A stretch of DNA of 64,000 nt. It comes from Candidatus Zixiibacteriota bacterium. Lineage in GTDB: Bacteria > Zixibacteria > MSB-5A5 > GN15 > FEB-12. Positions 25,221 to 56,597 of the stretch are shown piece after piece. The notes under the pieces were generated by a model, which did not search any database, was not told the origin of the DNA, and worked only from the letters and a program-made list of their open reading frames with translations. The number at the start of each line of letters is the position of its first letter. Positions within the stretch are counted from its first letter, which is position 1. The stretch is taken from contig CP070777.1 of NCBI GenBank assembly GCA_020346225.1, forward strand, positions 2,554,772 to 2,618,771, written 5' to 3'. Both the position numbers and the translations under genes were made by a program.

Positions 25221-25245
25221 AAAAAACCCCAAAGGTACTTCGGGG
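25221..25245 (-). terminator. FMN-riboswitch expression-platform terminator / SD sequestor
   Basis: The minus strand reads CCCCGAAGTACCTTTGGGG followed by TTTTTT, ending 1 nt before the ribD ATG. Confidence 0.8.
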
Positions 25246-25273
25246 CATCACAGCCGAGGTGCCAGCGCAACCT

Positions 25274-25394: not shown

Positions 25395-25410
25395 ATATAT
25401 TTTATACGGG

Positions 25411-27586: not shown

Positions 27587-27643
27587 GAAATTACCGTCAC
27601 CGCAATTCTACCGATTAAAGCTCCCTCCCGCCTTCAGGAGAGC

Positions 27644-29689
27644 CTACTCGGGTGTCCCGGCGAAATACTCCCCTATTCGGCGTGCCGACCTGTCGATTAT
27701 GGACAAACATCTCTGAAGGTTCTCACCGGTCGGGTTTTCCTTGGACTTGAGCAACTCCACGGAGCCGATTATGCCCGACAGTGAGGACTTGACCCGGTTG
27801 CGCGCCACGGGATCAACACCCTCCGTCGCCTCCGGTCGCCGCGTCTCGCGGTCCGAAGTCGAGCCGGTTTTGCGCCTTCCGCTAAGCGGGATTACCAGTG
27901 ACAGCACCCCGGCAACGGCCGTGACAAACTGGATGTCACCCTGACGGAACTGAAAGCGTTCCCAGCTTCGGGCATCAGCCAGACTGACAGTGGCCACGGT
28001 GGCGGCGTCGATCTTAACCGGCACCAGCAGGGCGGATTTGACGTCCAGGCCGAACACCTGCTGAGCTTCCGGCTGGGTCATTCTCTTGTCGGTGGATTCC
28101 TGATTGATCATCATGGGACGTCCCGTTTCGATGACCAGCTGGTGGTATGGCATCAGCGACAGAATCATGGCACCGCGAGCCGGAGCGACACCGGTAAGAG
28201 GCCGCGCCGACTGCAGAGCCCGCGAAGTCAGGAAGGTGCCCCTCGAATCGACCGTCGATATCCTGACCACGGTGGTCTTGAGGTGCTCGGCGATAAGTTC
28301 CGTGGCCCGTTCGAACACCTGCTGTATCGATTCCATACGGGCGACCTCGGACATGAGATTGTTGACGGCAAACGTCCGGCGCTCGCTGCTGTCCTGTTCC
28401 AGACGGTGTTTCTCCTCGTTACACAAGGCCGCCAGCGCAGACAGGACGGCTTCAAGATAAGCTCGTCGGCGGTTGTCGAAATAATGCGGGGTCTTGCTGC
28501 CAAAGGTCACTACGGCGCTTACCTGAGGGCCGCGCATAACGGGAAGAGCGGCAAAAGTGCTAAGACTCATTCGCGACATGAGTTCGTCTACAGTCGGGTC
28601 ATTCCTGCCGTCCCAATCGTGTACGATAACAGGTCGAACCCCGTCGAAGACGCGCCGGACCACATTGTGGCTGTCATTGAAATCGGCCGCAATCTCCCGC
28701 AGTAACCCGCCCGTCTCCCCCATCGTGTAGCGGTGGACAAGCCCGTTTCGGTGAACCAGCGTCAGGCTGAAGTAATCGAGCGATATCTTCTGGCGGAGAC
28801 ACCCAACCACGGCGGCCATGTTTTCCCGAAAGTCGCTGCGATAATCCAGAGACGATTCGAGGTCATTCTGCCACCGCCTGAGTTCAGCGTAGAAGCCGTT
28901 TTTGACCTTCAACAGGTCGGTATGGATCTTGTGGCCCACGATGTCGCCGACGAGTTTGAGGCCGGTACGATCGTCATCGGAGAGCGTCGCAACGTTTTTA
29001 CCCCAGAGTAGAAACACGCCCGCCAGGTAGCTGTCGGCCATTACGGGAATTATGTGATCGGGCCAGTCGACACTCCCGGGGAGCCTTTCAATCAGTCTCT
29101 TGGGGTCGAGGTCGGCGTCGGTCGCCAGCACGCCGGGGGCTCCGTCAGCAAAGACGATTCCCTTGAGCGAACCCGAGTCGGCGCCCGTAGTATCGACACC
29201 GGCCACATACAGAAGGCCCGCGCTCTTGCGAGAGATCAAATAAGCGGCTCCTTTGGTCAGCTCGTATCCCTCAACCAAATGAGCCAGCGTCTTTTCCACA
29301 ATGGCCGGCGGACGATTCTCAACCCTGACAAGCTGCTCGGTCTTTTTGAGCAGACCCAGGCGCTGAACGCGCTCCCTGTTGTACATCCGGTATGACCGAG
29401 ACAGGGGAGCCCAACTGGAAACTCCGTTGATTAACAGGGCAAGGCCGGTTATGACACCGATACAGAAAACCAGCTTGAAGAACAGGGGGTCTGAAAGGAA
29501 CGGAATTTGGTGAAATGCGCCCAACCCGCTGTAAATTTGGGCCAGTGAGGAAACAGCGAGAACCGTCAGTCCCCCAACAACGTGGTAGTAGCTCTGCCTG
29601 TCCTCGCCGGCGAGATACTTCTTGAATCTCGAAACCGTAATAAGAGCAATTACAAATACAGAAGCTACTACGAGATCTATTAGTGGCAC
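27644..29689 (-). CDS. membrane-bound multi-GAF signalling protein with degenerate DHp-like C-terminus and no kinase domain
   Basis: 681 aa. 3-4 N-terminal TM helices and several GAF-like segments. It ends with NRVKSSLSGIIGSVELL..., a HisKA-like helix with Asn where the phospho-His is expected, and stops ~50 aa later. Confidence 0.65.
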   Translation of the reverse strand: MPLIDLVVASVFVIALITVSRFKKYLAGEDRQSYYHVVGGLTVLAVSSLAQIYSGLGAFHQIPFLSDPLFFKLVFCIGVITGLALLINGVSSWAPLSRSYRMYNRERVQRLGLLKKTEQLVRVENRPPAIVEKTLAHLVEGYELTKGAAYLISRKSAGLLYVAGVDTTGADSGSLKGIVFADGAPGVLATDADLDPKRLIERLPGSVDWPDHIIPVMADSYLAGVFLLWGKNVATLSDDDRTGLKLVGDIVGHKIHTDLLKVKNGFYAELRRWQNDLESSLDYRSDFRENMAAVVGCLRQKISLDYFSLTLVHRNGLVHRYTMGETGGLLREIAADFNDSHNVVRRVFDGVRPVIVHDWDGRNDPTVDELMSRMSLSTFAALPVMRGPQVSAVVTFGSKTPHYFDNRRRAYLEAVLSALAALCNEEKHRLEQDSSERRTFAVNNLMSEVARMESIQQVFERATELIAEHLKTTVVRISTVDSRGTFLTSRALQSARPLTGVAPARGAMILSLMPYHQLVIETGRPMMINQESTDKRMTQPEAQQVFGLDVKSALLVPVKIDAATVATVSLADARSWERFQFRQGDIQFVTAVAGVLSLVIPLSGRRKTGSTSDRETRRPEATEGVDPVARNRVKSSLSGIIGSVELLKSKENPTGENLQRCLSIIDRSARRIGEYFAGTPE

Positions 29690-29966
29690 CTTCGATACCC
29701 TCCAGAATGGCTAAGTCGTTACCATTATCAGGATTATCGGCAGTTCTTAGCCAATAGTTGAGTTACCGTCCCCGATTGGCCCGCCGCGACCAACTATGGC
29801 CTGCCGCCAACATCCGCAGGCCCACTGGTGTAAACCAGTACTTTTGGGAATCCCCTCAACCGCTTGTGTGACAATGTACTATAGTGTTCCAAATGACCCG
29901 GCACCGCCGTTGCAATGATAAGGTCGAAACACATTTCGAATCCTCAGCCATTGAGAGGGAGAGACT

Positions 29967-30710
29967 ATGCAGACAAAGAAGCAAATCTTTATGTTCGCCG
30001 GCCTGGCTCTTCTGCTGGCAACAGCCGGCTGGTATGGTTGCTCCGACGGCACCGTTTCCACCGTTGTGTCCCAGGACGAACTGGCCTCAGGCGGATACGC
30101 CAATGTCTACCTGCCGACGGCAGAGGGATACACTTCCGTATTCAACGTGGTCTACAGCGGCGGCACCGAGGAAATGGTCACAGTGCGGGTGGGTCGGTCC
30201 GTTCAACTCGGGGCTGTCAACGCGATCGAGTGGATCGGTACCAACCAGGGCGTGGCCGACACCGGTTACATTGCCGTAACCAGCGATTGCGTGTACTTCT
30301 ATGAGACTTCCGCTTCGTCGCCGGAGAAAATCATAGAGATGCCGATGACCACCGGTCAGAGCTGGGAGCGTTTTGCCGACTCCGACATCGGTGACGGCGA
30401 CATAACCGACATCATTACCGGCAACGACAAGGATGACGATACCACCGCCACCGATGATCCCTCGGCCAAGGTCTTCCCTTCCGACGGCGGTAATATCATG
30501 ACCGTCGCCGGACGCGAACAGCTCGAGCTTAGTTCCGGCCTGACTTTCTCGGACGTCGTCAAGGTCTACAACGAAGGTTCCGTTCCCAACCGGACAAACT
30601 ACTACTGGTTCGTGGCCAACGTCGGACTGGTGAAATACGTGATAGGCGCCTCGGATAACGGCGGCAGCACCGGCGAGATCGTGGGTGAGCTTTTGGATTA
30701 CGGTTACTAA
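29967..30710 (+). CDS. hypothetical lipoprotein
   Basis: 247 aa. Signal peptide with a lipobox-like ATAGWYGC|S, an Asp/Thr-rich insert, and GAGGGAGAG upstream of the ATG. Confidence 0.6.
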   Translation: MQTKKQIFMFAGLALLLATAGWYGCSDGTVSTVVSQDELASGGYANVYLPTAEGYTSVFNVVYSGGTEEMVTVRVGRSVQLGAVNAIEWIGTNQGVADTGYIAVTSDCVYFYETSASSPEKIIEMPMTTGQSWERFADSDIGDGDITDIITGNDKDDDTTATDDPSAKVFPSDGGNIMTVAGREQLELSSGLTFSDVVKVYNEGSVPNRTNYYWFVANVGLVKYVIGASDNGGSTGEIVGELLDYGY

Positions 30711-30733
30711 GAGAATCTGTGAGATTCGACAGA

Positions 30734-30760
30734 AGCCGGGAGACGTACCCGGCTTTTTTA
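30734..30760 (+). terminator. intrinsic terminator
   Basis: Stem AGCCGGG/CCCGGCT with a 7-nt loop, followed by TTTTTT. It lies 24 nt after the lipoprotein stop. Confidence 0.75.
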
Positions 30761-31414
30761 TTTGGAGAACAGGGAGGGGTGCACGATGCGGGCGTAGTTC
30801 TTGAAGTGAATCTTCGCCACCCGCCTCAGCACATCCGGGCCGTGTTTTCGCAGCAGGCGTCGTCCGGCCTCATCGACCTGAGCCGCCGCCCCGCGCGGCA
30901 GGGGAAAGTCGAGCCCGGCCGAGAGCTTCTCCAGTTCCGCCATGAATCGCGCCCGGGCCAGGATGGAAGCGGCGGCCACCTGCGGCACCGCCTCCCCCCT
31001 GACAATCTGCCGAAGCTTTACCGCTTGTTTTTTCCGGGCCAGGGCGGCTTCGACCAGTTCCGGCTTGCCGAACTTATCGGAGATAGCCATATCAGCGACG
31101 TTCGAAGCGACCAGATCATCAATGGCGCGGGCGTGTCCCTGCGCCAGCATCTTGTTGAGGTTTCTCAGCCTCTCGTAGAGACGGTTGTACTTCTGAGGGG
31201 AAATTACCACCACGCAATGGGCGAAGTCGGACCGGAGGGCACGGTCTATTTCGCGGATTCGGTTATCAGAAATGAGCTTGCCGTCGCGCACACCGAGCGT
31301 TTTGAGCAAGGCGCGCTCCGAGTCATCAGCGAGAAAAGACGCAATCACCAGAGGGCCGAAAAAGTCCCCCTTACCCGACTCATCGACACCGATTATCCGG
31401 CGCGAAGCTGCCAT
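30758..31414 (-). CDS. type-2 ribonuclease H (RNase HII/HIII family)
   Basis: 218 aa. The N-terminal catalytic motif IGVDESGKGDFFGPLVIA carries the GKGD-F/Y-FGP signature usually seen in RNase HIII, but the length is HII-like. Confidence 0.8.
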   Translation of the reverse strand: MAASRRIIGVDESGKGDFFGPLVIASFLADDSERALLKTLGVRDGKLISDNRIREIDRALRSDFAHCVVVISPQKYNRLYERLRNLNKMLAQGHARAIDDLVASNVADMAISDKFGKPELVEAALARKKQAVKLRQIVRGEAVPQVAAASILARARFMAELEKLSAGLDFPLPRGAAAQVDEAGRRLLRKHGPDVLRRVAKIHFKNYARIVHPSLFSK

Positions 31415-31417
31415 GCT

Positions 31418-31978
31418 TCAGTTGGCCCGTTCGAGATAGTCGCCGGTGCGCGTGTCGACCTTGACCTTATCGCCCTCCTTGACAAAGGGCGGCACTTTGA
31501 CAGTGAGGCCGGTGTTGAGTTTGGCCGGCTTGGTAACGTTGGTTACCGTGTCTCCCCTCGCGGCGGGTTCCGTCTCGACGACTTCGAGAATGACCGAGGC
31601 GGGGAGATCAATAGAGATGGCCTCATTATCAAGAAAAAGCACTTTGTATTCTTCATTTTCCAGGATATACCAGCGGGCATCACCAAGACTCTCTACGGGA
31701 ACGGAAACCTGCTCGAAAGTCTGCGAATCCATGAAGGTCATCTCGCCGGCGTTTTCGTAGAGATACTGCATCTTCTTCGATTCCATGTCGGGAGGTTTGA
31801 AAGTATCGTTGCTGGAAAAGACCTTTTCGACGACGGCGCCGGTTTTGATGTGCTTCAGCTTGGTGCGGATATTGGCCTTGCCGCGGCCCATCTTGAAATG
31901 CTGGAACTCCACCACGTAGTATGGTTGATCGTCGACCAGGATGCGCAAGCCTCTGCGAAAATCAGACGGTGAATACAT
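31418..31978 (-). CDS. efp: elongation factor P
   Basis: 186 aa. SDFRRGLRILVDDQPYYVVEFQHFKMGRGKANIRTKLK aligns to the EF-P N-terminal domain. GAGGAGG RBS upstream. Confidence 0.92.
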   Translation of the reverse strand: MYSPSDFRRGLRILVDDQPYYVVEFQHFKMGRGKANIRTKLKHIKTGAVVEKVFSSNDTFKPPDMESKKMQYLYENAGEMTFMDSQTFEQVSVPVESLGDARWYILENEEYKVLFLDNEAISIDLPASVILEVVETEPAARGDTVTNVTKPAKLNTGLTVKVPPFVKEGDKVKVDTRTGDYLERAN

Positions 31979-32059
31979 ATAACCTCCTCGAATTTCGACC
32001 TGAAATATAACAAAAAGCCGATTTTGCCCAAGTGCTTTTTTGAATTCGGGCGCAGCGCT

Positions 32060-33856
32060 TCAAGCGTGCTGCGCGACGGGGTGGGGCCGCTGAACCAGCG
32101 GCAGGGTAACCGTAAAGACGGTGCCGGAATCCGGTCGCGAGTCCACGGTGAGTCTTCCGTCATGGAGGTCGATGATCTTCTTGGCCAAAGGGAGGCCGAG
32201 CCCGGTCCCGGACGGTCGTGAGGAGAAAAACGGCGTGAATATCTTATCGATATCATCCGGGGCAATACCGCAGCCGTAATCCCGCACGCGCACACAGGCA
32301 TGCTCGGCGTCCAGCGACAGGTCGAGATCAATCTGTCCCGGCCCGCCCTTATAGGCATTGACTGCGTTCTCGATGAGGTTCGCCAACGCCTGCTTGATCA
32401 GAAGGCCGTCGATATCAGCCACGATGGCGCCGCCGGTTTCGGTGCTGACCACGACCTCGATATGCTCGTGGTTCGGTTTTATCCGGAATGTCTGCGCCAG
32501 ATCTTCGACCAGTTCGACGAGGTCGACCCGGTCGGGCGAGAAATCAAACGGTCGCGCGAAGTGCAGGAAGCGGTCCACGAGGTCCTCGGCTTCTTTGGTC
32601 TCCTCCTCCAGGGCCGTGATGGAATCGGTTTCGAGGTTGCTTTTCAGCAGCCGTTTCCTGACGAGGTGACAGTAACCCGACATGGCGCCGATGGAGTTGC
32701 GCAACTGATGGGCCAGACCACCGGCCATTTCGCCCAGAGCCGCCAGCCGGTTGCGCGACTCGACCTCGCGCCGGAGGTCCTTTATCTCGGTCAGGTCATT
32801 GATGAGAATGGAGGCACCGATGTTGCTCAGGGTGTCGTCATGGATGGCCGAGATATTGATGCCCAGGGTCAGGTTATCGTCGGAAACGGTTTTCAGGTCG
32901 TACTCCCGGTAGAACTGGCTGTGTTCTCCGCGCAGGACGGCCCGGACGGCAGCAACCACTTCATCGTCTAAGCCGGGCAGGTCGCGAAACGGTTTGCCGG
33001 ACAGGGTCTGCGGGGAAACGTCGAGAATCTTCCCGGTAGCCTCGTTGGCAGAGACTATTTTCCCTTTGACATCGACCATCACGAGACCGGAGGACATCGA
33101 GTTGAGCAAATATTCGTTCAATTGCTCCAGCGAATCGGCTTTCTTCTGGATGGCCCGGTTGAGCAGAACCAGCTGAGATTCCTTTTGCTGCAGCTCGTCG
33201 ATCATATTCTGATATTCGTTCACCAATGCTTCAACGTCATCCGTGGCACCGCCCACGTGCCGCCCGGCATCGAGAGCCTGCTTTTTAATGCGCCGGAAGG
33301 GTGACAGGATTACCCTGAAGAGCAACATATACAGGACGGCGATAGCCAGCACAGCCACCACGTTGACGACAATCAGCGTGCGACTCGAGCTATCCAGATG
33401 GGCCAGTTCGGGCAGTTTCGCGCCGAGCACCAGAAGCTTGTCGCCGAAAGAAGTGGAGAACCGGTAAATATAAAAGTACTCGGATGCCTCGCCGGCAATC
33501 AGCCGCTTGTAATCGCCTGCCTCGACCTTTTTGATAATCTGTTCGGGTAAACCCGTCGCGCCGCTGCCGGCGTCTTCCAGCTCGGACTGCGAAACCAGAT
33601 GCACCGACCTGAGGGAATGGCGATTCTGAAGTTCGGCCCGGAGTGCCGAATCGAGTTGTATCAGGCCTCGTCGTTGAACAATCCGGCCGATAGAGAGAGC
33701 CGAATTGTAGAGCCCGACCGTGCTGCCCAACCGTTCCCTTTCGGCGGCCCGATAAATCACCAGATTAGACCTGAAGTTAAGAACGAGCAGAACAAAGACA
33801 ATGACCAGCAGGCCCAGGTGAACCACGGTTTCGAATTTTCGGCGGGTGAGTTTCAT
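32060..33856 (-). CDS. sensor histidine kinase, NtrB/AtoS-like (TM, PAS, HisKA, HATPase_c)
   Basis: 598 aa with two TM segments and a PAS-like region. H-box LGEMAGGLAHQLRNSIG. G-boxes DYGCGI and GTGLGLPLA. Confidence 0.85.
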   Translation of the reverse strand: MKLTRRKFETVVHLGLLVIVFVLLVLNFRSNLVIYRAAERERLGSTVGLYNSALSIGRIVQRRGLIQLDSALRAELQNRHSLRSVHLVSQSELEDAGSGATGLPEQIIKKVEAGDYKRLIAGEASEYFYIYRFSTSFGDKLLVLGAKLPELAHLDSSSRTLIVVNVVAVLAIAVLYMLLFRVILSPFRRIKKQALDAGRHVGGATDDVEALVNEYQNMIDELQQKESQLVLLNRAIQKKADSLEQLNEYLLNSMSSGLVMVDVKGKIVSANEATGKILDVSPQTLSGKPFRDLPGLDDEVVAAVRAVLRGEHSQFYREYDLKTVSDDNLTLGINISAIHDDTLSNIGASILINDLTEIKDLRREVESRNRLAALGEMAGGLAHQLRNSIGAMSGYCHLVRKRLLKSNLETDSITALEEETKEAEDLVDRFLHFARPFDFSPDRVDLVELVEDLAQTFRIKPNHEHIEVVVSTETGGAIVADIDGLLIKQALANLIENAVNAYKGGPGQIDLDLSLDAEHACVRVRDYGCGIAPDDIDKIFTPFFSSRPSGTGLGLPLAKKIIDLHDGRLTVDSRPDSGTVFTVTLPLVQRPHPVAQHA

Positions 33857-41138: not shown

Positions 41139-41165
41139 CTACAAATCCCACCGCGGGCTGCCATA

Positions 41166-41192
41166 TTGGCAGCACATCTGGCAGAGTGCTAA
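41166..41192 (-). promoter_or_regulatory. CIRCE-like operator (one perfect and one degenerate half-site)
   Basis: The minus strand reads TTAGCACTC-N9-TGCTGCCAA against the consensus TTAGCACTC-N9-GAGTGCTAA. The left arm matches 9/9 and the right arm 5/9. It lies immediately downstream of the candidate -10. Confidence 0.6.
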
Positions 41193-41194
41193 TA

Positions 41195-41224
41195 AATGTA
41201 CTAAAAGCACGTACTTGATGTCAA
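41195..41224 (-). promoter_or_regulatory. sigma-70-type promoter candidate TTGACA-N18-TACATT for the hrcA operon
   Basis: On the minus strand the -35 is at 41224-41219 and the -10 at 41200-41195. Confidence 0.5.
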
Positions 41225-41332: not shown

Positions 41333-41641
41333 TCAGCCCTCTTTTTTGTCTTTTGTCTTCGTGCTGTCCTTTTTCGGCGGCTTCTGCTTGAGATTCTCTT
41401 TGCGGTCGTCGATGCCGTTGTTGTTCCGGTCCACAAAATTGTCGTACTTCTTGGGCTTCTCCGGCGGTTTTTGCGGCGGCCGGGGCTGCGGCGGTTTCTT
41501 CTTCTCGTCCTGTTTCTTCTTGTCTTTCTTCTTTATGATTGAAACCGCCGGCCGGTTGTTCCTGGTCTCGAGAGCCGCCGCCGAACCGCAGGTAGCAACA
41601 GTGAATGCTGCCGTTAATATGTAGATGAGTAAGCGCTTCAT
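41333..41641 (-). CDS. secreted Lys/Pro-rich small protein, function unknown
   Basis: 102 aa from the ATG at 41641, with GGAGGG 9 nt upstream. Signal peptide MKRLLIYILTAAFTVATCGSAAA. The mature part is dominated by K, P, D, Q and N. Confidence 0.6.
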   Translation of the reverse strand: MKRLLIYILTAAFTVATCGSAAALETRNNRPAVSIIKKKDKKKQDEKKKPPQPRPPQKPPEKPKKYDNFVDRNNNGIDDRKENLKQKPPKKDSTKTKDKKEG

Positions 41642-41703
41642 GGTCAATTACCCTCCGCTACAATAGTAGCTCTTCTTACACGTCGCTGCAACAAAAATCG
41701 ACG

Positions 41704-43203
41704 CTACCTTCTGGTTTTCCCCTTATCGGAAGTCTTTGGAGACTTCTTTTCCGGAGAGCTCTTCTTGCTGGAAGAAGAGCTCTTCGGGGACGATTTGGTG
41801 CCGGACGACTTCGTCTGCGGCGAGGACTTGCCGGGACTCACGCTCTTGCTCTTGGACGGGCTGGGGGCCCGGGTGGATCGACGAGGCGACACCTTGGACG
41901 ACTTTGCGGGAGTGCGCGAGCCGGATTTCTTCTGGTAATACCCGGAGGACGATTTTGTCGGCCCGCCCGATTTCACCTTCGACCCGCCTTGAGACTGGAC
42001 GGCCTTCGACGACTTCTGGGAAGTCCTCAGCTTCGAAGGCGTGCTCCCGCTGCTTTTGCCGACCCGGCTGGTAGTGCCCTTGGACTTTGTCGCCTGATAC
42101 GACTTGGTGCCACCGGTGTTGCCCACGGCCTTGCCTTTATTGGCCGCCTTGTGAATGCCGCCGACGGTTTCGAAACCACGGTCGGTCTTCACGACCTTGG
42201 TCGCTCCCCGGACGAACTTCTTGTTCAGCTTCAGATCGCCGGCTTTGGCCGCCTTGGCCGACTTGGCGGACGGTTTGGCGGTGACAACCTGCTTGGTCTT
42301 GAAAGCAGGGTATCCGTGAAGGACCGGGTCACGATATCCGACCAACCGCACATCCTTATATTTCGAGACGACCGTCGGCGAGGTGACGATAATGGTTCTA
42401 TCCAGAACGACCGTATTGTACCGGGTGATATGAACCGGGTACTCCCAGCAGTAGCCATAGTAGTCATAGATGGTGAAGGTGTGCCAGCCGACATAGATCC
42501 GCGGAATATAGAGCGGAATCACACCCCAGTAGATGCCGTTGACGTACACGGTACCCCCGTACGGGTAATCGATATAGACGTTGCCGCAAACGGACCAGCT
42601 CGGGTAGGCGGGATAGTAGATCGGATGAAAGTAATCCGGTTCCCACTCGTAAATGTACAGGGCGGTTCGGTCAAAGGCGAAACGCTGACCGCCATAGCGG
42701 ACGAAGTACTCGGCGTTGACGTAATCCATGAACTCCAAGCGGTCGTCCCAGTCACAGATCAAACCCGAGGTCGGATACCAATCGGGGATGGGGAAGCGCT
42801 CGCGCGAGGCGATAGCCTGGATGTTTTCCACGCCGTCGGGACCCGTCACGACCAAGTCAAAATCGTCGGCTCCATCCGGAATCTGATAGGTGGCCCCGCC
42901 CCTGACGTAATTGTCGTCGGCCGGCGAAGTCGGAAAGAGCAGATTTACGTGCCCACGACTGTCAACCGAATAGATGGCCACGAATGCGTCCCGGTTGGTG
43001 CGAAAATGCAGGACGATGTTGTCACCTTCGTAAAACTCGTTGTCCGAATGGTTGGTCCAGATGTCGACGTCAAGGTAGCGGTCAATCTTAACCTGATCGT
43101 AGTATTCTCCCTGAAACTCTTCGTCGACAGCTTTGACAACCGGTGACAGGATGACAGCCGCGAGGGCCGTCAGGCCGATAATTCTCGTTGTTATGCGTTT
43201 CAT
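41704..43203 (-). CDS. secreted DUF4384 + PEGA-like protein with ~198-aa Ser/Lys-rich basic tail
   Basis: Signal peptide. DUF4384-like segment (DIWTNHSDNEFYEGDNIVLHFRTNRDAFVAIYSVDSRGHVNLLFP). Tyr/Trp-rich PEGA-like segment (GTVYVNGIYWGVIPLYIPRIYVGWHTFTIY). Low-complexity tail follows. Confidence 0.7.
   Translation of the reverse strand: MKRITTRIIGLTALAAVILSPVVKAVDEEFQGEYYDQVKIDRYLDVDIWTNHSDNEFYEGDNIVLHFRTNRDAFVAIYSVDSRGHVNLLFPTSPADDNYVRGGATYQIPDGADDFDLVVTGPDGVENIQAIASRERFPIPDWYPTSGLICDWDDRLEFMDYVNAEYFVRYGGQRFAFDRTALYIYEWEPDYFHPIYYPAYPSWSVCGNVYIDYPYGGTVYVNGIYWGVIPLYIPRIYVGWHTFTIYDYYGYCWEYPVHITRYNTVVLDRTIIVTSPTVVSKYKDVRLVGYRDPVLHGYPAFKTKQVVTAKPSAKSAKAAKAGDLKLNKKFVRGATKVVKTDRGFETVGGIHKAANKGKAVGNTGGTKSYQATKSKGTTSRVGKSSGSTPSKLRTSQKSSKAVQSQGGSKVKSGGPTKSSSGYYQKKSGSRTPAKSSKVSPRRSTRAPSPSKSKSVSPGKSSPQTKSSGTKSSPKSSSSSKKSSPEKKSPKTSDKGKTRR
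41707..42300 (-). repeat. low-complexity Ser/Lys/Thr-rich coding tract
   Basis: Residues ~302-499 of the DUF4384 protein. Hand count gives 41 Lys + 10 Arg versus 5 Asp/Glu, with many SSK/KSS/SPK units. Confidence 0.7.
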
Positions 43204-43224
43204 TTCATTATCCTCCTCGTTCCG

Positions 43225-44088
43225 TTATTTGGATTCCGGTGAGGACAGGTCCTTGACCAGGTAATCCGGGCCGTGCACCGGCTTTTCGACAGCGGTGGCA
43301 ACGGGCTTCAGTTCCGGATTGTCCTCATCGGTTTGATATGCCCACACAAAATTTACAGAGGTTTGGTTAATGTCCACCACCCACATCTTGGCGTAGTGAA
43401 GATCGCTCGTCCAGATCACATAGGTGTGTCCGAGAATAACCTCCAGCCATCCGTTCTCGGACCAGCCGCCCTGAGGGGCCCAGCCGATTTCGTCAAACGA
43501 CTCCGTGAAGCCCACATCTTGCAGGTCGGTGCCCGAGTTCGCGGCGTTGACGTAGAAAGTACCGTTGACCCAATCGACATAGACATCCGCGATCTCGCTG
43601 TCGAAACTCACGCGCCGATGCAAAGCGAAGTTGAAGCCGGATGAATCGGGTTCGACGGCAAAATCATAGAGTCCCACGATACCTTCGGGTCTCGGCGTGT
43701 CAAAGACGTTCTCAGCCGACAAGTCCGAAACCTGGCCGGAAGCGTCGACCGAGGAAACAGCGTAGTAGTAGGTGATGCCGTTTTGAGCGGTGCCGTCGAT
43801 GTATTCATAGATCAGAAGGTCAAGGTCCGGGTTGGGAACGGCATCGACAACGCCAAGCTCGGTGTAATTGGTGATGGGGTCGAAAGAGCGCCACAAAATA
43901 TAGCGCACGATGTCGTTCTCGTACGGGCCGTTCCAGTACAGATAGACGGCATTGTCACCGGTCACTGAATAGATGCCCTGGGGAGCGGCAGGGGAGAAAT
44001 CAACCACCAGAACATCGTCATCGTTATCACAGCCGGCCAGAAGGAAGGCGGCCAACATCAGAATCATTACTAATATCTTCGTTTTCAT
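43225..44088 (-). CDS. lipoprotein with fibronectin type III-like domain, function unknown
   Basis: The ATG at 44088 has AAGGAG upstream. Lipobox LLAGC. FN3-like segment (PQGIYSVTGDNAVYLYWNGP...GITYYYAVSSVDASGQVS). The ORF-track start at 44124 would lie almost on the sigma-54 promoter. Confidence 0.7.
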   Translation of the reverse strand: MKTKILVMILMLAAFLLAGCDNDDDVLVVDFSPAAPQGIYSVTGDNAVYLYWNGPYENDIVRYILWRSFDPITNYTELGVVDAVPNPDLDLLIYEYIDGTAQNGITYYYAVSSVDASGQVSDLSAENVFDTPRPEGIVGLYDFAVEPDSSGFNFALHRRVSFDSEIADVYVDWVNGTFYVNAANSGTDLQDVGFTESFDEIGWAPQGGWSENGWLEVILGHTYVIWTSDLHYAKMWVVDINQTSVNFVWAYQTDEDNPELKPVATAVEKPVHGPDYLVKDLSSPESK

Positions 44089-44130
44089 CTCATATCTCCT
44101 TCGGACTTTGTCGCTTTCAGCCAACAGTAA

Positions 44131-44147
44131 AACAAAGCCCGTGCCAA
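44131..44147 (-). promoter_or_regulatory. sigma-54 (-24/-12) promoter
   Basis: The minus strand reads TTGGCACGGGCTTTGTT, i.e. TGGCACG-N4-TTGT, against the consensus TGGCACG-N4-TTGC. There is a single mismatch, at the -12 C. Confidence 0.7.
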
Positions 44148-44205
44148 AAACACTAAGCCGCTGACTACCTGTGCCTTAGCGATTGCGGAGAGGGTTTTCG
44201 GCGTA

Positions 44206-44236
44206 CCTTGACGCACAATTTTTGTGCTGATCAAGG
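44206..44236. promoter_or_regulatory. 31-nt inverted repeat, candidate enhancer (UAS) for the adjacent bEBP
   Basis: CCTTGA-c-GCACAA-ttt-TTGTGC-tga-TCAAGG. It lies 60-100 nt upstream of the -24 element and 14 nt past the regulator stop. No U-tract follows on the minus strand. Confidence 0.5.
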
Positions 44237-44249
44237 CACGAGTGCACCG

Positions 44250-45608
44250 TTATTGTGTGTTTCGGGAGAGCTGGTATTCTTTGATTTTCGCCCTGAGGGT
44301 GTTTCGATGGATCCCCAGCTTTTCGGCGGAAAGTGACATATTCCAGTTCAGTCGGTCCAGGCAGGCCTTTATGTGAGTTTTCTCCAGTTCGGCCAGCGTA
44401 GTCAGCCCGGCACCCCCGGCGGCCGCGGACGGGCCCCTGGTTAACCCGGTGAGGTCGCTGCCGGTAATCAGATTGCTTCTGGACAGGACCACCGCGCGCT
44501 CTATGATGTTTTCCAGTTCGCGCACGTTACCCGGCCAGGCGTAGCCTACGAGCACTTCGGCCGCGTCGGTGTCGATTCCGTCAATGGTTTTGCCCACCTT
44601 GCGAGCGTACTTCTTCACGAAATTCTCGGCCAGAAGCAAAATGTCACCGGTTCTGTCCTTGAGCGGAGGCAAGTATATGCGGATTACGTTCAGGCGATAG
44701 AACAGGTCTTCCCGGAATTTCTGTTCCTTCACCAGCCGGTCCAGGTCGCGGTTGGTGGCGGCGATTATTCGAATATCCAGCGGTATCTCCTTGACCGAGC
44801 CGAGACGCTCGATCTTGCGCTCCTCCAGAACGCGGAGCAGCTTGACCTGCATGGTGGGGGGCATCTCGCCTATCTCATCCAGGAAAAGCGTCCCGCCGTC
44901 GGCCAACTCGAACCGCCCCTGCTTGGCCTTATCGGCCCCGGTAAAGGCTCCCTTTTCATAACCAAACAGTTCCGATTCCAGAAGACTCTCCGGGAAGGCG
45001 GCACAATTGATTGCCACCAGTTTTTTTTCGGCCCGCGGCGACAGAGCGTGAACAGCCCTTGCGACCAATTCCTTGCCGGTCCCCGACGGCCCGGTAACGA
45101 GCACGGTGGCCTCTTTGGGGGCCACCAGCGAGATCATTTCCTTGACCTGCTTTATGGCCTCGGACTCGCCGATTATCTCGGAAACCGGAAATATCTCGGC
45201 CAGGCGCTCGCTCATGACGGCGTTTTCGACAACGAGACGATTTTGCTCGGCGGCACGATTGAGCTTCACAATCAGTTCGTCAAGGTCCTCAACCGGCTTG
45301 GTAAGATAATCAAAAGCACCGGCCCTCATGGCCGCCACGGCGGTTTCCACCGAGCCGAAAGCGGTCAGGACGATTACCTGAATGAACGGATTAATCTCGC
45401 GGAGACGTCCGAGCAACTCCAGGCCGTCCATCCCGGGCATCTTCATATCCAGGATGGCCACCGGCGAGAAGATCTTGTGATACTGGTCAAGCGCCTCCTG
45501 GCCGCTTGCGGCGGTAAAAACGGAGAATCCTCTCTTACTGAGAAAGCCCGACAACAGGTCGCGCTGGCTCTCCTCGTCGTCCACGATAAGCAGCTTCAAG
45601 TTCGGCAT
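44250..45608 (-). CDS. sigma-54-dependent response regulator (NtrC family bEBP)
   Basis: Receiver domain (LLIVDDEE...ILDMKMPGMDG). AAA+ domain with Walker A GPSGTGKE and the GAFTGA loop. C-terminal Fis-type HTH. ATG at 45608. Confidence 0.9.
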   Translation of the reverse strand: MPNLKLLIVDDEESQRDLLSGFLSKRGFSVFTAASGQEALDQYHKIFSPVAILDMKMPGMDGLELLGRLREINPFIQVIVLTAFGSVETAVAAMRAGAFDYLTKPVEDLDELIVKLNRAAEQNRLVVENAVMSERLAEIFPVSEIIGESEAIKQVKEMISLVAPKEATVLVTGPSGTGKELVARAVHALSPRAEKKLVAINCAAFPESLLESELFGYEKGAFTGADKAKQGRFELADGGTLFLDEIGEMPPTMQVKLLRVLEERKIERLGSVKEIPLDIRIIAATNRDLDRLVKEQKFREDLFYRLNVIRIYLPPLKDRTGDILLLAENFVKKYARKVGKTIDGIDTDAAEVLVGYAWPGNVRELENIIERAVVLSRSNLITGSDLTGLTRGPSAAAGGAGLTTLAELEKTHIKACLDRLNWNMSLSAEKLGIHRNTLRAKIKEYQLSRNTQ

Positions 45609-45692: not shown

Positions 45693-46361
45693 TTATTCCC
45701 CGGACCCCACCAGGATACGAATACCGGCGTGAATCTCCCAGCTCGAGAGGTCTTCTCCAAACAGGTAGGCACCGCCTTCGTACTCGGCCTCGACACTGGC
45801 GGAGTTCACGTAATGGTAATTGCCTTCGGCGAAGAAGCCGCCGTAATCGGAGGTGTAATAGAAAAGGCCTCCGCCCAGACCGAAGGAAAACGCCGGGTCA
45901 TATGATATCTGCCGGTAACGGTCACCGTTGGGGTTGGTCACCCACGTGGTGAACTTCAGAAAGGTCAGGCCGGCGCTGGCCTTGACATACGGCGTCAGAT
46001 TAGCGGTCGGCATGAGGAAGTACTTAGCGTAAAGGCAGGGATTGTAAACGCGATGCTTAAGCCCTTCAGCGGCCAGATCCGTCTCCCGGTTGTGGACTTC
46101 GTATTCCGAGAAGCGAAAACCGAAACCGGTCACGAAAGGGATGGAGACGAAATAACCGATATCGATACCGAAGTTGTAGCCGGTTTCGGCGCCCAGGGTA
46201 TCCTGCCACTCGAGCATCACACCGGTAGGCATGTCAATGCCGCCGTAGAAGTTCAGTTCGAGGACGTCTTTTTCCCATTCCTCTTCCTCGTCCTGAGCCA
46301 AGGCCACCGAATTTAGCAGCAAAATCAACAAAGCTGACAACAGGATCAGTGATTTTTTCAT
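45693..46361 (-). CDS. small outer-membrane beta-barrel (porin-family / OmpW-like) protein
   Basis: ATG at 46361. Signal peptide MKKSLILLSALLILLLNSVALAQ. Alternating aromatic strands rich in Gly and Tyr. Confidence 0.65.
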   Translation of the reverse strand: MKKSLILLSALLILLLNSVALAQDEEEEWEKDVLELNFYGGIDMPTGVMLEWQDTLGAETGYNFGIDIGYFVSIPFVTGFGFRFSEYEVHNRETDLAAEGLKHRVYNPCLYAKYFLMPTANLTPYVKASAGLTFLKFTTWVTNPNGDRYRQISYDPAFSFGLGGGLFYYTSDYGGFFAEGNYHYVNSASVEAEYEGGAYLFGEDLSSWEIHAGIRILVGSGE

Positions 46362-46705
46362 GATGTTATCCTCTAAAGCCGTTTTAATATTCCAGACCGG
46401 TTTCCCCGCCAAGCTCCAGTATCGACCGGCGGAAAATTGAAATAAACAATTAATGGACGCTTTGTCAACCGAATATATCCAAAGTCAGACCCAAAAAACC
46501 CGGCCCCGGCAGCCCTTGTCCCCCAGCACCTTGGACGGACCGGCCTGACTTGGCCGACCCCCGCATAATTATTTGGGGGCGGAGCCAGTTTTTGTTGACT
46601 GCCTCTCAAAACGCGAGCATACTTGGCACCAGAAGAAAAGGCATCAGAAGTCTACTGAAACAACCCATAAACCATGCAGGGTCAGCAGACCTTAAAAAAC
46701 CGCCA

Positions 46706-47504: not shown

Positions 47505-49694
47505 TTATAAAGGGTGGCATGGCACGGGCGGCGAAGTACCCGCCTCGAACACGAATTCGACCAGATAAATCAGGTCAAGGGCATCCACCTGAAGGTCGCC
47601 GTTAACATCCCCCTCCTCCAGACATGCCGGGGCACTCCCGGTCGTCCACAGCCATTCGGCGAAGTATATAATATCAAGAGCGTCGACCTGACCGCTGTGA
47701 TCGACATCGCCGCTTACGACACAACACTCGAGAACCTCCACTCGGGTATACGTGTAGGGCGATAGTCGCCCCTGCTGGCCCTCGGCGTCGAAGGCGGCGA
47801 CCCGATACCAGTATTCACCGTCGGATTTCGAAGTAAAGGTATAAAAGGTGTCGGGGATGCTCGAAGAAATCTCCGTCTCGCTCTGAAACAGATCGACGTT
47901 TTCAATGTCGTCGATGTACACACCCTCACCGACGGTGTAGTAATCGGTAAAATAAGACAACCTGAAAACGACCTGCTGGCCCTCGTAGGCCGACAGGTCG
48001 AACTCGGCTTTAATCCAGGCGTTGGAAGACCCGGTGATACCGTTACCCAGATTCAGGTTGTTCGGGTCATCGTTGGTGGTGAGATAACCGGCAAGGTTTT
48101 CAAAGGTGTACCCGCCGTCGGTGGATATCTGAGCGTAGAAGTAATCGTAGTGTTCTTCGATATCGTACCATATCCAGAACGTCAGCCAGTCGCTTTCCTT
48201 CACCTCGTACGGGGTCCGTGACACAAGCCAGTGCGGGTCGCGATTGTAGTTCAGGGTGTGCCAGCTGCCGGTGCCGGAGTGGCTGCGGCTTGTCGAAAGC
48301 ACCATGTTGGTCACATCCCAGTACCCGTAGTCCGCTTCCGCATCGTCAAGAACCTGCTGCTTGCCTTGATATTCCATCAGACGGTAAGCCGTTCCTGGGT
48401 TTATGTCATCCTCAAGGTTCCATTCAACCGTGAACTCCGGGTCGGCCGCTTCGGGACTGGTGATTGAAGGTGTGGCCGGCGGGGCGATAATGAACGGGTT
48501 GTCGGCTATCTTGGCCAGGTAGAGATTGGGGAAAACGTTTTCCTCACAGAGGTCGGAAATGCGAGAGGGAATCGGCCAGAAACCGTCGGAACTGCTGCCT
48601 ATCTCATCGGTCAACGAAACCGACCGGGTCTTGGATAGGGTGTCACCCCAGGCCCAGTCATTAGCGCCGCCGTTGCTGGGATACAGGACCCAGCCGATTT
48701 CCGGCGTATAGCCGTTGTACTGGGTCAGCGAATCGCCCAGGTTCACGTAGAAATCGGCCTGGTCGGTGTAAAAGCGACGATAGCTGAAGGGCCATATTTC
48801 GAGATTGGAGTAGCAGTGCAGGTTGTGGATTACAGTAAAGTTGCGGGAGCAGATAAAGGACTGCAGGTTGTCCGTTTCGGGTTCAGAGAACGGCGACGTT
48901 CCGCGATAAGTTTCGGAATAGGTGGCAGGGCTGGAGCCGACATCATCGAAGCCCCACATGAAACTGAAGTTGCGGTTCAGGTCGATGCCGTAAGTACCGT
49001 CACCGTTATACCGCCGGTTCTTCCGCCACATACCGCCGCCGTCGGGATTGGTAATTTCATTGTAGATGTATCCATCCGGATTGACCACCGGCAGAAAGAA
49101 CAGTTCCCGGTTGTTTACGATGTCGGTCACCTCCGGATCGGTACCGTAGTTGGTGAGCAGATATTCCATGAAGTGAAGCAGAGCCGCGGCCGAGGCCGGT
49201 TCGCGGGCGTGAATGAGAGAATTATAAAAGACTTCGGGTTCATCCTCATCTACATCGGGGTTATCCGATATTTTGACCACCCACTGCTCGTATCCTTCCA
49301 GTGACAGCCCGATCGAGAATTTGTCAGTGGTTATTGATGGAAAGGCGGCCGTAATGCTGTCGAGGTAGAAGACTATCTGGCTGTATGTCCTGAAACCTCC
49401 GAACGGCAGCATGGCCGTGTTTCGAAGGACATAGAACTCCTCGATATCGGGGTGGATGACCTCGTAATCGATGCCGGCGGCGCGAAGGCGGGCGAGGTCG
49501 CCCGGTTTGGCGAAGATTTCAATCGGCTGTCCCGGGAGGTCCCTGAGGTCCAGCCCCATTTCGTACAGTCCTAAATACTGCTGCTTGGTCATGGGCTTGA
49601 GCTGGATTTGAGAAATGACGGTTCGCTCGGACTCCGCAAATGTAGAGGCGGCGAGCAAAGTGATGAGCAAGGTTATCAGTAAGCTGCGGCGCAT
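47505..49694 (-). CDS. secreted M14-family zinc carboxypeptidase with C-terminal dockerin-like module
   Basis: ATG at 49694 with GGAGG upstream, plus a signal peptide. M14 motifs IHAREPAS, NPDGY and DLNRNF. The C-terminus carries two EF-hand-like repeats, GDVDHSGQVDALDIIYFAEWLW and GDVNGDLQVDALDLIYLVEFVF. Confidence 0.8.
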   Translation of the reverse strand: MRRSLLITLLITLLAASTFAESERTVISQIQLKPMTKQQYLGLYEMGLDLRDLPGQPIEIFAKPGDLARLRAAGIDYEVIHPDIEEFYVLRNTAMLPFGGFRTYSQIVFYLDSITAAFPSITTDKFSIGLSLEGYEQWVVKISDNPDVDEDEPEVFYNSLIHAREPASAAALLHFMEYLLTNYGTDPEVTDIVNNRELFFLPVVNPDGYIYNEITNPDGGGMWRKNRRYNGDGTYGIDLNRNFSFMWGFDDVGSSPATYSETYRGTSPFSEPETDNLQSFICSRNFTVIHNLHCYSNLEIWPFSYRRFYTDQADFYVNLGDSLTQYNGYTPEIGWVLYPSNGGANDWAWGDTLSKTRSVSLTDEIGSSSDGFWPIPSRISDLCEENVFPNLYLAKIADNPFIIAPPATPSITSPEAADPEFTVEWNLEDDINPGTAYRLMEYQGKQQVLDDAEADYGYWDVTNMVLSTSRSHSGTGSWHTLNYNRDPHWLVSRTPYEVKESDWLTFWIWYDIEEHYDYFYAQISTDGGYTFENLAGYLTTNDDPNNLNLGNGITGSSNAWIKAEFDLSAYEGQQVVFRLSYFTDYYTVGEGVYIDDIENVDLFQSETEISSSIPDTFYTFTSKSDGEYWYRVAAFDAEGQQGRLSPYTYTRVEVLECCVVSGDVDHSGQVDALDIIYFAEWLWTTGSAPACLEEGDVNGDLQVDALDLIYLVEFVFEAGTSPPVPCHPL

Positions 49695-49870
49695 GTGTCC
49701 TCCAAGAGCCTGAAGTAAGGTTCTGCTCAACAAGTACATATAGGCAGGTAATTCTGCCACCAAGATAAGTCATTTGGGCATTTTGTAAACATCTTTGTTT
49801 GGGTGATTTGACCGGAATCCCGAGGATATTCCGGTGGTGGCCGGATACCATGCGCATGGGAAAAAACAAG

Positions 49871-54173: not shown

Positions 54174-56447
54174 TCACTTAATCAGGACCATCTTGCGCAC
54201 CTCGGAAACACCGTCGCCCTTGAGGCGATAGAAATATACCCCAGAAGGGGCCGCCCGCCCGTCCGGCAGTGAGCCTTCCCAGTGGGCCCGGTGCCAGCCC
54301 GCCGGCTGAACGCCGGAACTCAGGACGCTCACCCTCTGGCCGAGAACGTTGTACACCTCAAGTGCTACTTCAAAAGGTTCCGGTAAGTAATATTCTATTA
54401 AGGTCATAGCATTGAAGGGATTTGGCCTGTTCTGTTGCACGAGAAAACTCTCCGGCAGAGCCTCCCCGGTTTCCGACTCGGCCTCAGTCACCGGCGACAC
54501 CACGATATAGCCGGTCACCGTGACCGGTGTCCGAGCTACCTGGGCCCTCGCCAGCAGCGGCTGCAGGGTGTCATTGCTGAAAGCCACCAAGGCGGCAACG
54601 CCGACCACGTCGGCGGCCGTGAAATGGATTACGGCTACCTCGAAACTTGTGGCGGAAAAGCATTCATCGGACCGGATGGTGCGGCAATCGAGATAGAGCT
54701 GGCCCGCGGAATTGTCTATGACCGCCTCGAAATCGAGTTCCTCGGGCAGGCCGCCGGCCCAAACGATGGAATCGACGAGCACGATGTCGGCATCGAAGGA
54801 CAGCGGCAGAGAAATGCGGTCAGCTTCACTCACCAGGGTCGCTCGCACCACCGTGGATGCGCTACCACCGCTCTCGGCAGCGGCCGAAGCCACGCCCAGA
54901 GTGTCGTCGGCCTGACCGGTGTGATCCAGCACCTCAAGGCTCACTGTAACAGTGGCAGTCGAACTTATCCCGAGATTGTCAGTGATACTGAGCGCGCCCT
55001 GATAGGTCCCGGCCGGGAGGCCGGCGGCGTTGATGGAAACCTCCAGACCGCCCGGCGTGGTTCCGCCGGTCGGTGTCGCCGCAAGCCAGTCGGCGTCAGA
55101 GGTGACCGTGAAATCGACCGGGTTATATCCGCTGTGTTCGACGTTGACTGCTGCCGGCGGCGGGGCTGATTCTCCGGCGACGAATTCAAAGTTGAGGGCC
55201 GCCGGTTCCGCGGTAATCGACAGGTCGTTGTACTTCTGAACGGCCGCAAAGATATCCCAGTTTCCGTTTCGATTGTCGGTCCAACAGACGTATCGGTAAG
55301 CACCGTCGACCGCGACATCGGCGTCGAGTTGGGCGCTCTCGGCGAAGTCGTTGGCCCGGAAGTTGGCCTCCCGGACGATACCATTTACATCGATCATCTG
55401 GCCGGTGATGTCCCACGAGGCCGAGGTGGAATCAGACCAGACGATCGCCACGTTGCCCATTCGGTCGGCCGCGATGGCCGGTTCACGCTGGGCCGTCTGA
55501 AGGCCGTCAGTGTTCACCCTTATCTCGTCGGTCACCGGAGTCAGAAGGGTGTCGTACTTGCGCGAGTAGATGTCGGGATCGAGCGGGTAGGTGCCGTTGC
55601 GCCAGTCCACCCAGACCACGGTGAAGTGCCCCGAGCCGTCGGTGGCAATATCGGGAAAAGCCTGACGCGCTCCCTGGCTGTCGGCGTTGGCCTTGACGTT
55701 GACGCCCAGCCTGTTGGCCAGCGAATCATAGCGCTGGAAGAAGATGTCGTCGTTGCCGTCGCGATTGTCGTACCAGGTAACGACGAACCAGCCTTGCGGC
55801 GACACCGCCACCCTCGGCGCGTGCTGCTGACCGGTGCCCGTGTCGTCGTTGACGCGAAAGTTGCCGCCGATGAGACTTCCGTCGGCGGCGATCAACTGAC
55901 CGTAGATATCCCAGTTGCGATTACGATAGTCGGCCCAGACGACGACACCTCTCCCCCGGTCGCTGAGGGCGATATCGGGCGACTCCTTGGTAGAGTCCGG
56001 TATTTCTATGGTAAGGTTGGTGTTGACTCCCAGAGGCAACACGGTCGAATCGAACCGCTGAAAGTAAATGTCCGGGTCGAAGGGATAGCTCCCGTTGCGG
56101 TAGTCTTTCCATACCGTCGCATAACCACCCGCGAGGCTGGCGGCGACAGCCGGCTCGAACTGATATGATTCGACCTGTTCATCGTTTATCTTGAAGTTGT
56201 AACCGACCGCGAATCCGTCGGCGTCAAACCGCTGAAGGTAGATGCTGCTGGTAGTCGAGCGACGGTCCACCCAGGTGATAACAAAACCCTGTCCGGGGCT
56301 CACGGCAATACGCGGGGCGCTCTGTGCGGCTCGGCCGCCGTCGTCGTTGACAATGAAGTCACTGCGTTCGACGGCCGCGGCCGTGAGCGACAGGCAGCCA
56401 AGCAAGCCCGCTGCAAGGCACACTACTCTGTGGTATCCGGTTCTCAC
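54174..56447 (-). CDS. secreted 7-repeat (propeller-like) protein with BACON-like and cohesin-like modules and T9SS C-terminal sorting domain
   Basis: GTG at 56447 is preferred, because the ORF-track start at 56546 spans a terminator. Seven W-x-D-x-R-x-G-x-x-DI-[YF] repeats. The tail NRPNPFNAMTLIEYYL...SGVYFYRLKGDG...KMVLIK is T9SS type A-like. Confidence 0.75.
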   Translation of the reverse strand: MRTGYHRVVCLAAGLLGCLSLTAAAVERSDFIVNDDGGRAAQSAPRIAVSPGQGFVITWVDRRSTTSSIYLQRFDADGFAVGYNFKINDEQVESYQFEPAVAASLAGGYATVWKDYRNGSYPFDPDIYFQRFDSTVLPLGVNTNLTIEIPDSTKESPDIALSDRGRGVVVWADYRNRNWDIYGQLIAADGSLIGGNFRVNDDTGTGQQHAPRVAVSPQGWFVVTWYDNRDGNDDIFFQRYDSLANRLGVNVKANADSQGARQAFPDIATDGSGHFTVVWVDWRNGTYPLDPDIYSRKYDTLLTPVTDEIRVNTDGLQTAQREPAIAADRMGNVAIVWSDSTSASWDITGQMIDVNGIVREANFRANDFAESAQLDADVAVDGAYRYVCWTDNRNGNWDIFAAVQKYNDLSITAEPAALNFEFVAGESAPPPAAVNVEHSGYNPVDFTVTSDADWLAATPTGGTTPGGLEVSINAAGLPAGTYQGALSITDNLGISSTATVTVSLEVLDHTGQADDTLGVASAAAESGGSASTVVRATLVSEADRISLPLSFDADIVLVDSIVWAGGLPEELDFEAVIDNSAGQLYLDCRTIRSDECFSATSFEVAVIHFTAADVVGVAALVAFSNDTLQPLLARAQVARTPVTVTGYIVVSPVTEAESETGEALPESFLVQQNRPNPFNAMTLIEYYLPEPFEVALEVYNVLGQRVSVLSSGVQPAGWHRAHWEGSLPDGRAAPSGVYFYRLKGDGVSEVRKMVLIK

Positions 56448-56463
56448 CTCATGAATTTTAGGC

Positions 56464-56492
56464 AATAAAAATGCCCGCCTGTTAAGGCGGGC
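56464..56492 (-). terminator. intrinsic terminator of the HU / bS22-like transcription unit
   Basis: The minus strand reads GCCCGCC-ttaaca-GGCGGGC followed by ATTTTTATT. Confidence 0.85.
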
Positions 56493-56597
56493 CAAAAAAC
56501 TGATTGAATGTCTTAAGGGTGTGACCCTCAGGCGGTTACTGATCACCGCCGGTCACGTCTAAGTTGCTTCGCCCTTCATCGTCCGGCCGCAGAGGAA

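Follow-up and report, generated by a model that had tools for sequence, protein, structure and literature searches.

The closest described counterpart of the locus reported here is enteric NtrC at the glnAp2 promoter, where a response-regulator activator with an AAA+ domain and a Fis-type helix-turn-helix (HTH) acts on a -24/-12 promoter from two upstream dyad sites, near -108 and -140, that are separated by about three helical turns; the NtrC box is GCACC-N5-GGTGC. Comparable arrangements are the sigma-54-dependent envelope stress responses ZraSR-ZraP and PspF-pspA, which lie next to stress genes and in which an enhancer-binding protein activates small envelope proteins encoded beside its own gene, and the PEP-CTERM pair PrsK/PrsR, in which PrsR, also a response-regulator activator, is thought to control sets of exported proteins. 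Here we describe a locus in a 64,000-nt stretch of Candidatus Zixiibacteriota (GCA_020346225.1, contig CP070777.1, 2,554,772-2,618,771, forward strand; the whole stretch is called the window below), in which the gene for an NtrC-class regulator lies before a three-gene operon for exported proteins. The original prediction held that a sigma-54 promoter and an enhancer-type palindrome tie this regulator to the exported trio. Phylogenetic footprinting supports that claim, and with a probability of about 75% we read the locus as a two-component-controlled, enhancer-dependent sigma-54 transcription unit in the conserved core of Zixibacteria.

All genes of the locus are on the minus strand. An outer membrane protein (OMP)-like gene (45693-46361) is followed by a terminator (45673-45649), the regulator gene (44250-45608), a 161-nt spacer, a lipoprotein gene (43225-44088), a DUF4384 gene (41704-43203), a gene for a 102-aa protein (41333-41641), and then hrcA-grpE-dnaK-dnaJ. 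The three operon genes are tightly spaced, as had been stated, with gaps of 21 and 62 nt. The lipoprotein is identical to a protein of a Candidatus Zixiibacteriota metagenome-assembled genome (MAG), on a contig of 3.18 Mb. The comparative set came from a scan for the lipoprotein family and comprises 80 loci, one genome per species, with 727 kb of sequence; the records are mostly labelled Zixibacteria, GN15, FCB group or uncultured Ignavibacteriales. Gene neighbours were counted by tblastn with the window proteins over 84 fetched loci, where DUF4384 was found in 80, the regulator in 69, the OMP in 59 and hrcA in 56. The order OMP, regulator, lipoprotein, DUF4384, small protein, then hrcA and grpE is kept in most loci, and the core of it, from the regulator to the small protein, recurs in most of the 80 species-level loci, in line with the pairing of regulator and trio in the original prediction.

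Within the window the promoter match is at chance, and the case must therefore rest on the relatives. Their locus proteins are 41-65% identical, so neutral spacer DNA is expected to be randomised; the spacer is indeed randomised in relatives except for a few conserved blocks, of which the promoter and the inner palindrome are the strongest. The sigma-54-type promoter TGGCACG-N4-TTGTT (44131-44146, minus strand), which reads TGGCACGGGCTTTGTT from 44146 to 44131, was recognised by its consensus match and has a counterpart, TGGCA[C/T]-N5-(T)TG, lying 36-101 nt before the lipoprotein start, in 79/80 loci. TGGCAC occupies 44146-44141 and places GG at -25/-24 (-24 being 44144), a dinucleotide that is invariant in the 63 profiled loci. 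Positions -13/-12 (-12 being 44132) read GT and not GC; the G is kept, at the correct spacing of ten bases beyond the GG. The sole exception among the 80 loci is L053, a second paralogue in one MAG. This divergent lipoprotein copy (JBGSIV010000045.1, 1124-1885) comes from the same MAG as L044 and is without promoter, activator site or DUF4384 neighbour.

From the positions of -24 (44144) and -12 (44132) the transcription start is predicted at about 44120. An AAGGAG follows at 44101-44096 and an ATG at 44088 (minus strand), so that all three elements that had been pointed out, a promoter one mismatch from consensus, a ribosome-binding site and this start codon, are in place, the promoter match alone not being above chance in the window. 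The longer open reading frame, starting from TTG 44124, had been judged unlikely; this TTG cannot be the start codon because it lies upstream of the predicted transcription start, while ATG 44088 agrees with the N-termini of all homologues. A Shine-Dalgarno sequence precedes the lipoprotein gene in 51/56 loci.

The main candidate activator site, GCACAAAAATTGTGC (44213-44227, minus strand), is centred near -100 and is conserved in relatives, its ten arm positions carrying 1.4-2 bits of information content in 63 loci. Its consensus, upstream of the promoter, is GCACA-N5-TGTGC, with a GAACA variant in one arm at some loci. The 727 kb from 80 relatives hold 61 copies of the strict form, each of them upstream of the lipoprotein gene, against a chance expectation that we ourselves estimate at ~0.7. 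The window holds one exact copy of the inner palindrome, and two matches at up to one mismatch where 1.6 are expected. The original prediction had described a 31-nt inverted repeat, CCTTGA-tca-GCACAA-aaa-TTGTGC-g-TCAAGG, which is present at 44236-44206 (minus strand); its inner 15 nt are conserved, but the outer arms CCTTGA/TCAAGG are specific to the window, with 2.2 of 8 positions complementary in relatives, which is the chance level.

Measured from the first base of the site to the promoter GG, the spacing is 81-83 bp in 62 loci, 79-80 bp in three, 72 bp in five, 100-105 bp in seven, and 115 and 125 bp once each; at L040 it is 82 bp with the GGCATGCCAGTTGA motif as anchor. Most departures from 82 bp are close to multiples of 10.5 bp. 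Such helically phased spacing is expected if the protein on the site has to be turned towards the promoter when the DNA loops, and the proposal that the palindrome stands at an enhancer-like distance is borne out by it. A weaker second candidate site, ACACAATAACGGTGC (44258-44244, minus strand), matches at 8/10 positions, is centred near -131 and overlaps the stop codon of the regulator gene. It lies about three helical turns (31-32 bp) upstream of the first, and its GTGC is invariant in alignment A1. In relatives the mean match at offset -31 from the first site is 5.0/10 against a background of ~2.4, and 31/81 sequences have a match of at least 8/10 at offsets -30 to -32.

Between enhancer and promoter, near -40, is an element GTCAG-CGGC-TTA (44166-44154, minus strand) that resembles a binding site for IHF, whose consensus is WATCAR-N4-TTR. 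Relatives keep A/C/A/R-N4-T/T/R at a fixed position 19 to 9 nt upstream of the GG (A at -17 in 67/81, T at -10 in 72/81, A or G at -9 in 77/81). The element is missing in a clade without an adjacent regulator (L065, L066, L069, L073, L075, L077, L082). In this clade purD is directly upstream of the lipoprotein gene, with no OMP gene or regulator, the promoter has the canonical TTGC, and the site is ~102 bp away (not 82).

The regulator (44250-45608, minus strand; 452 aa) is an NtrC-class response-regulator enhancer-binding protein. Pfam confirmed the receiver, AAA+ (GAFTGA) and Fis-type HTH domains that had been read from its translation: PF00072 Response_reg, PF00158 Sigma54_activat with the GAFTGA, PF25601 AAA-lid and PF02954 HTH_8. 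The acidic pocket, Thr and Lys of the receiver can be read in the sequence, and GAFTGA is kept in 59/61 orthologues. The closest solved structures in a PDB search are the NtrC-family proteins 4l4u (381 bits), 1ny5 (362) and 3dzd (320), which share the three-domain layout and match over the whole length, by sequence only. The best NCBIfam scores are all below the equivalog cut-offs: AtoC 476 bits against 714, PrsR (TIGR02915), the second-best match, 437 against 502.6, ZraR 429 against 760, and NtrC (TIGR01818) 417 against 558.6. The recognition helix, HRNTLRAKIKEY, is invariant across the orthologues and resembles that of enteric NtrC.

We propose the following mechanism. The regulator gene would be transcribed from its own weak sigma-70-type promoter, right after the OMP terminator, into a leaderless mRNA, as sequence and conservation suggest. 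By analogy with the family, an unlinked histidine kinase would phosphorylate the receiver and the AAA+ ring would assemble, presumably on the two NtrC-like sites, the one near -100 and the weaker copy 31 bp upstream over the stop codon. The DNA between these sites and the promoter would be bent, probably at the IHF-like element near -40, letting the ring contact sigma-54 holoenzyme at TGGCAC-N5-TTGT, where ATP hydrolysis would open the promoter. The mRNA, starting near 44120, would have a 32-nt leader with AAGGAG and would encode three Sec-exported proteins.

Several observations weigh against the sigma-54 reading. An RpoN box was found neither in the window nor in the 727 kb of fetched loci, and the literature yielded no link between Zixibacteria and sigma-54; retention of GAFTGA (59/61) and of the -24/-12 motif makes it very likely that rpoN is present in the phylum. 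Scoring of the promoter region with the sigma-54 consensus, done as a mismatch scan of the window, gave one match at up to one mismatch where 0.60 was expected (42 of 100 shuffled sequences had one or more) and nine matches at up to two mismatches against 8.8 expected; the only other sigma-54 motif in the window, at 9342 on the minus strand, is without a downstream gene. The C of the consensus at -12, which is conserved in 96% of known sigma-54 promoters and helps hold basal transcription in check (PMC4551910), is replaced by T in the window promoter. This base is T or A in 54/59 loci with an adjacent regulator, and the dinucleotide is GC in 7/10 loci of a divergent clade without a regulator within 5 kb. 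The conserved non-C at -12 is the most unusual regulatory feature of the locus. No second activator gene, which might have shown whether T or A at -12 is general in the phylum, was found in the available sequence (window and fetched loci). In addition, the IHF-like element fits the core of the IHF consensus and is a candidate bending site by pattern match only, and binding of the regulator to the main site is deduced only from their adjacency.

That last point leaves room for a real sigma-54 enhancer that is bound by a different, unlinked activator, with the adjacent regulator a mere neighbour. The purD clade, which keeps the promoter and the site (at 100-105 bp) with no regulator within 5 kb, would suit such an arrangement, as would the GAACA half-site variant, which is unmatched by any change in the recognition helix; the invariance of that helix makes its co-variation with the half-site uninformative. 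Yet the regulator is directly upstream in ~59 loci, the weaker site overlaps its stop codon, helix and site are like the enteric NtrC helix and the NtrC box, and an orthologous regulator in the divergent clade may have moved elsewhere. We regard an unlinked activator as improbable.

The other two alternatives seem to us more improbable still. One takes the palindrome, which starts ~14 nt past the regulator stop codon, for an RNA hairpin that would terminate or stabilise the regulator transcript at its 3' end; in its favour, the 39-nt segment in the window has a folding energy of -21.1 kcal/mol, where shuffled sequences give -6.1. In relatives, however, the median is -10 kcal/mol, a T-run follows in just 4/81 loci, the arms are invariant in sequence and without compensatory changes, and the GAACA variants break the pairing with nothing to compensate. 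Outer pairing that is not conserved, few T-runs and the lack of compensating arm changes point to a protein-binding DNA site, not a conserved RNA structure, and a hairpin would leave the fixed, helically phased distance to the promoter unexplained; we rejected this reading of the palindrome. Nor do we give much credence to the idea that the -24/-12-like motif is unused and that transcripts of the trio come from the regulator promoter by read-through, or else from a sigma-70-type promoter that escaped recognition. The chance-level match in the window, the missing C and the fact that no terminator was detected between the regulator and lipoprotein genes in the window are compatible with it, but a chance motif or an unrelated promoter would not yield a motif kept in 79/80 loci at a fixed distance from the site, and a promoter scan of 44089-44250 found no sigma-70-like site.

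The sigma-54 reading having been preferred, the locus can be set against the described systems. As at glnAp2, two dyad sites about three helical turns apart lie upstream of the -24/-12 element, here near -100 and -131, and GCACA-N5-TGTGC and the NtrC box are alike except for the innermost base in each arm. Unlike enteric NtrC, the regulator is by score not an NtrC orthologue, its presumed targets are exported proteins and not nitrogen assimilation, its promoter has GT or GA and not GC at -12, no kinase is adjacent, and its own mRNA appears to be leaderless. ZraR is among the top NCBIfam and PDB matches, and the neighbouring stress genes here are hrcA-grpE-dnaK-dnaJ, but the locus has no ZraP, PspA or Spy-like protein and no adjacent kinase, and the chaperone link looks positional (see below). 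The PEP-CTERM system differs in that here none of the trio has a C-terminus made up of a PEP motif, a transmembrane helix and an Arg cluster, and no PrsK-type kinase is adjacent.

A strong intrinsic terminator of the OMP transcript, with an 11-pair stem and then a T-run, is found at 45673-45649 (minus strand), and a sigma-70-like promoter TTGCCT-N17-TAAGTT at 45644-45616 (minus strand), whose -10 hexamer has its last base 7 nt from the ATG at 45608; both had been noted in the original prediction, together with the suggestion of a near-leaderless mRNA. TAAGTT matches the -10 consensus at 3/6 positions, and a consensus scan missed this promoter. In nearly all of 56 relatives with a short OMP-regulator gap, a hairpin and T-run follow the OMP gene, with -35-like and -10-like hexamers next. 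A TAnnnT hexamer ends 5-9 nt before the regulator ATG in 36/48 loci, compared with 0-2 for four other genes, and a Shine-Dalgarno sequence precedes the regulator gene in 1/48. It is well supported by these comparisons that the regulator mRNA would be leaderless or nearly so.

The first cargo protein is an acidic lipoprotein of 287 aa (43225-44088, minus strand), from a family with 1327 members in the protein collection. Its lipobox is LAGC, with Cys20 invariant in homologues, and its net charge is -32 (median -27 in relatives). An AlphaFold2 model (mean predicted local distance difference test, pLDDT, 80) has an FN3 domain and then a second beta-sandwich, and matches FN3 domains in Foldseek (template-modelling score 0.73 to 3mpc); the family profile gives a weak match to the same Fn3-like structure in the PDB (E = 1.4e-3). 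Pfam fn3 has no match in the window lipoprotein, and the FN3 assignment is supported, by the model, at the level of fold only. One source names the orthologue P0109 HmuY; there was no Pfam match to HmuY in the window lipoprotein, no NCBIfam match in it or in P0109, and none among the best Foldseek matches listed.

The second, of 499 aa (41704-43203, minus strand), is an exported protein with a signal peptide, DUF4384 (PF14326; residues 57-135, 79 bits against a threshold of 27, and matched by 31/31 orthologues), a very conserved middle, a PEGA-like domain and a disordered Lys/Ser-rich tail of 197 aa. This tail of ~200 aa is about 20% Lys and 22% Ser, with a net charge of +45 (median +42). PEGA (PF08308) is detected in 26/31 orthologues (best E = 4e-6), and in the window protein Pfam has no PEGA match at E <= 0.1. 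The AlphaFold2 model is poor (pLDDT 62) and its Foldseek matches are all weaker than E = 0.01; for the PEGA-like domain they include only weak transthyretin-like folds (E >= 0.08). Of the domains that had been assigned to the cargo, DUF4384 was found by Pfam, FN3 is supported by structure prediction and PEGA by the orthologues, but the window's own proteins have no Pfam fn3 or PEGA.

The third is the small exported polycation of 102 aa (41333-41641, minus strand), for which a secreted, Lys-rich nature had been correctly predicted: it has a signal peptide, Lys-rich flanks (22.5% Lys overall) and an invariant motif F[IV]DxNxNG[IV]DDRxE, of which the core NG[IV]DDR is present in 55/57 orthologues; the median net charge in relatives is +13. 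No Pfam, NCBIfam or PDB match was found for it. The spacing of acidic and amide residues in the motif, in our reading, resembles that of calcium-binding loops. Over the trio and the OMP, Pfam and NCBIfam returned DUF4384 only, PDB profile searches gave nothing meaningful for the DUF4384 family or the small-protein motif, and in the literature we found DUF4384 and PEGA only in domain-architecture surveys and descriptions of cell-surface repeats.

Export signals, lipobox and the charge pattern of the trio are conserved in relatives. Sigma-54 regulons are commonly tied to cell-envelope functions (PMC4551910), and the exported cargo here fits this theme. The trio might tentatively be seen as an inducible assembly in the envelope or at the surface, either kept together by charge or binding polyanions through the tails. 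A more specific picture, which we consider doubtful, is a polycationic layer or coacervate that is specific to Zixibacteria, induced by a signal and located outside the cytoplasm, with the acidic FN3 lipoprotein as membrane anchor, the tail (of silaffin/SPKK-like composition) and the small calcium-loop polycation binding anions, and loss of the -12 C giving some basal, partly activator-independent output.

The OMP-like gene upstream (45693-46361, minus strand) encodes a beta-barrel of 222 aa with a signal peptide and forms a separate transcription unit. It lies upstream of the regulator in 59/84 loci, and its orthologues have a weak PF13505 match. Sigma-54 control of this gene was considered and rejected, for upstream of it lies a conserved sigma-70-type promoter of its own, with no sigma-54 motif. 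The promoter, in 46362-46550 (minus strand), has a palindromic -35 region, cGGTTGACAAaCCGtc in relatives; its distance of ~100-130 nt from the ATG would leave a long conserved 5' leader, and Rfam has no match there. An Rfam search of the locus was likewise without a match.

Downstream, a hairpin and T-run were seen by eye between the small gene and the conserved sigma-70 hrcA promoter in many relatives, where the operon would end, and the link to the chaperone genes therefore looks positional; co-transcription with hrcA-grpE-dnaK looks unlikely in those relatives. In the window no terminator was detected after 41333, and read-through from the small gene into the chaperone genes may occur there. 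The operator of hrcA (41157-41224, minus strand) departs from the canonical CIRCE element: after a sigma-70-like promoter TTGACA-18-TACATT come TTAGCACTC and, next, the palindrome GCTGCCA-ATA-TGGCAGC. The same arrangement was seen by eye in most of 54 relatives, and a divergent clade has TGTCACTC-N9-GAGTGCCAA.

No kinase is adjacent to the regulator, as had been remarked, the nearest histidine kinase gene being about 10 kb off. A PAS histidine kinase and a hybrid kinase lie ~10-18 kb from the locus, within a signalling cluster (25457-33856) made of a hybrid kinase with receiver (25457-27586), a double-GAF protein (27644-29689) and a PAS-HisKA-HATPase kinase (32060-33856). The kinases of this cluster are the nearest candidate partners of the regulator. 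Elsewhere in the window, an ordinary flavin mononucleotide (FMN) riboswitch (25278-25400, minus strand; 102.7 bits) lies upstream of a ribD-type gene (24116-25324), and two large exported proteins, an M14 carboxypeptidase with MAM-like and dockerin-like domains and a 790-aa BACON_2/FlgD_ig protein, are encoded at 47505-49763 and 54174-56546 (minus strand). The M14 gene is near the locus, upstream, in 22/84 loci.

The regulatory logic of the locus is textbook; its interest lies in the cargo and in the promoter variant. About 80 independent versions of it, which share phased spacing, two activator sites, a possible bending site and the conserved change at -12, let sigma-54 promoter architecture be studied as an unusually clean natural experiment, and in a phylum without cultured members. 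If the trio did form a layer or coacervate, its bound anionic partners could be mineral surfaces, silica, extracellular DNA, polyphosphate or lipopolysaccharide. The exported proteins that the locus brings to light are nearly universal and signal-controlled, their charges are both extreme and complementary, and the trio are good candidates for how Zixibacteria build or modify their surface.

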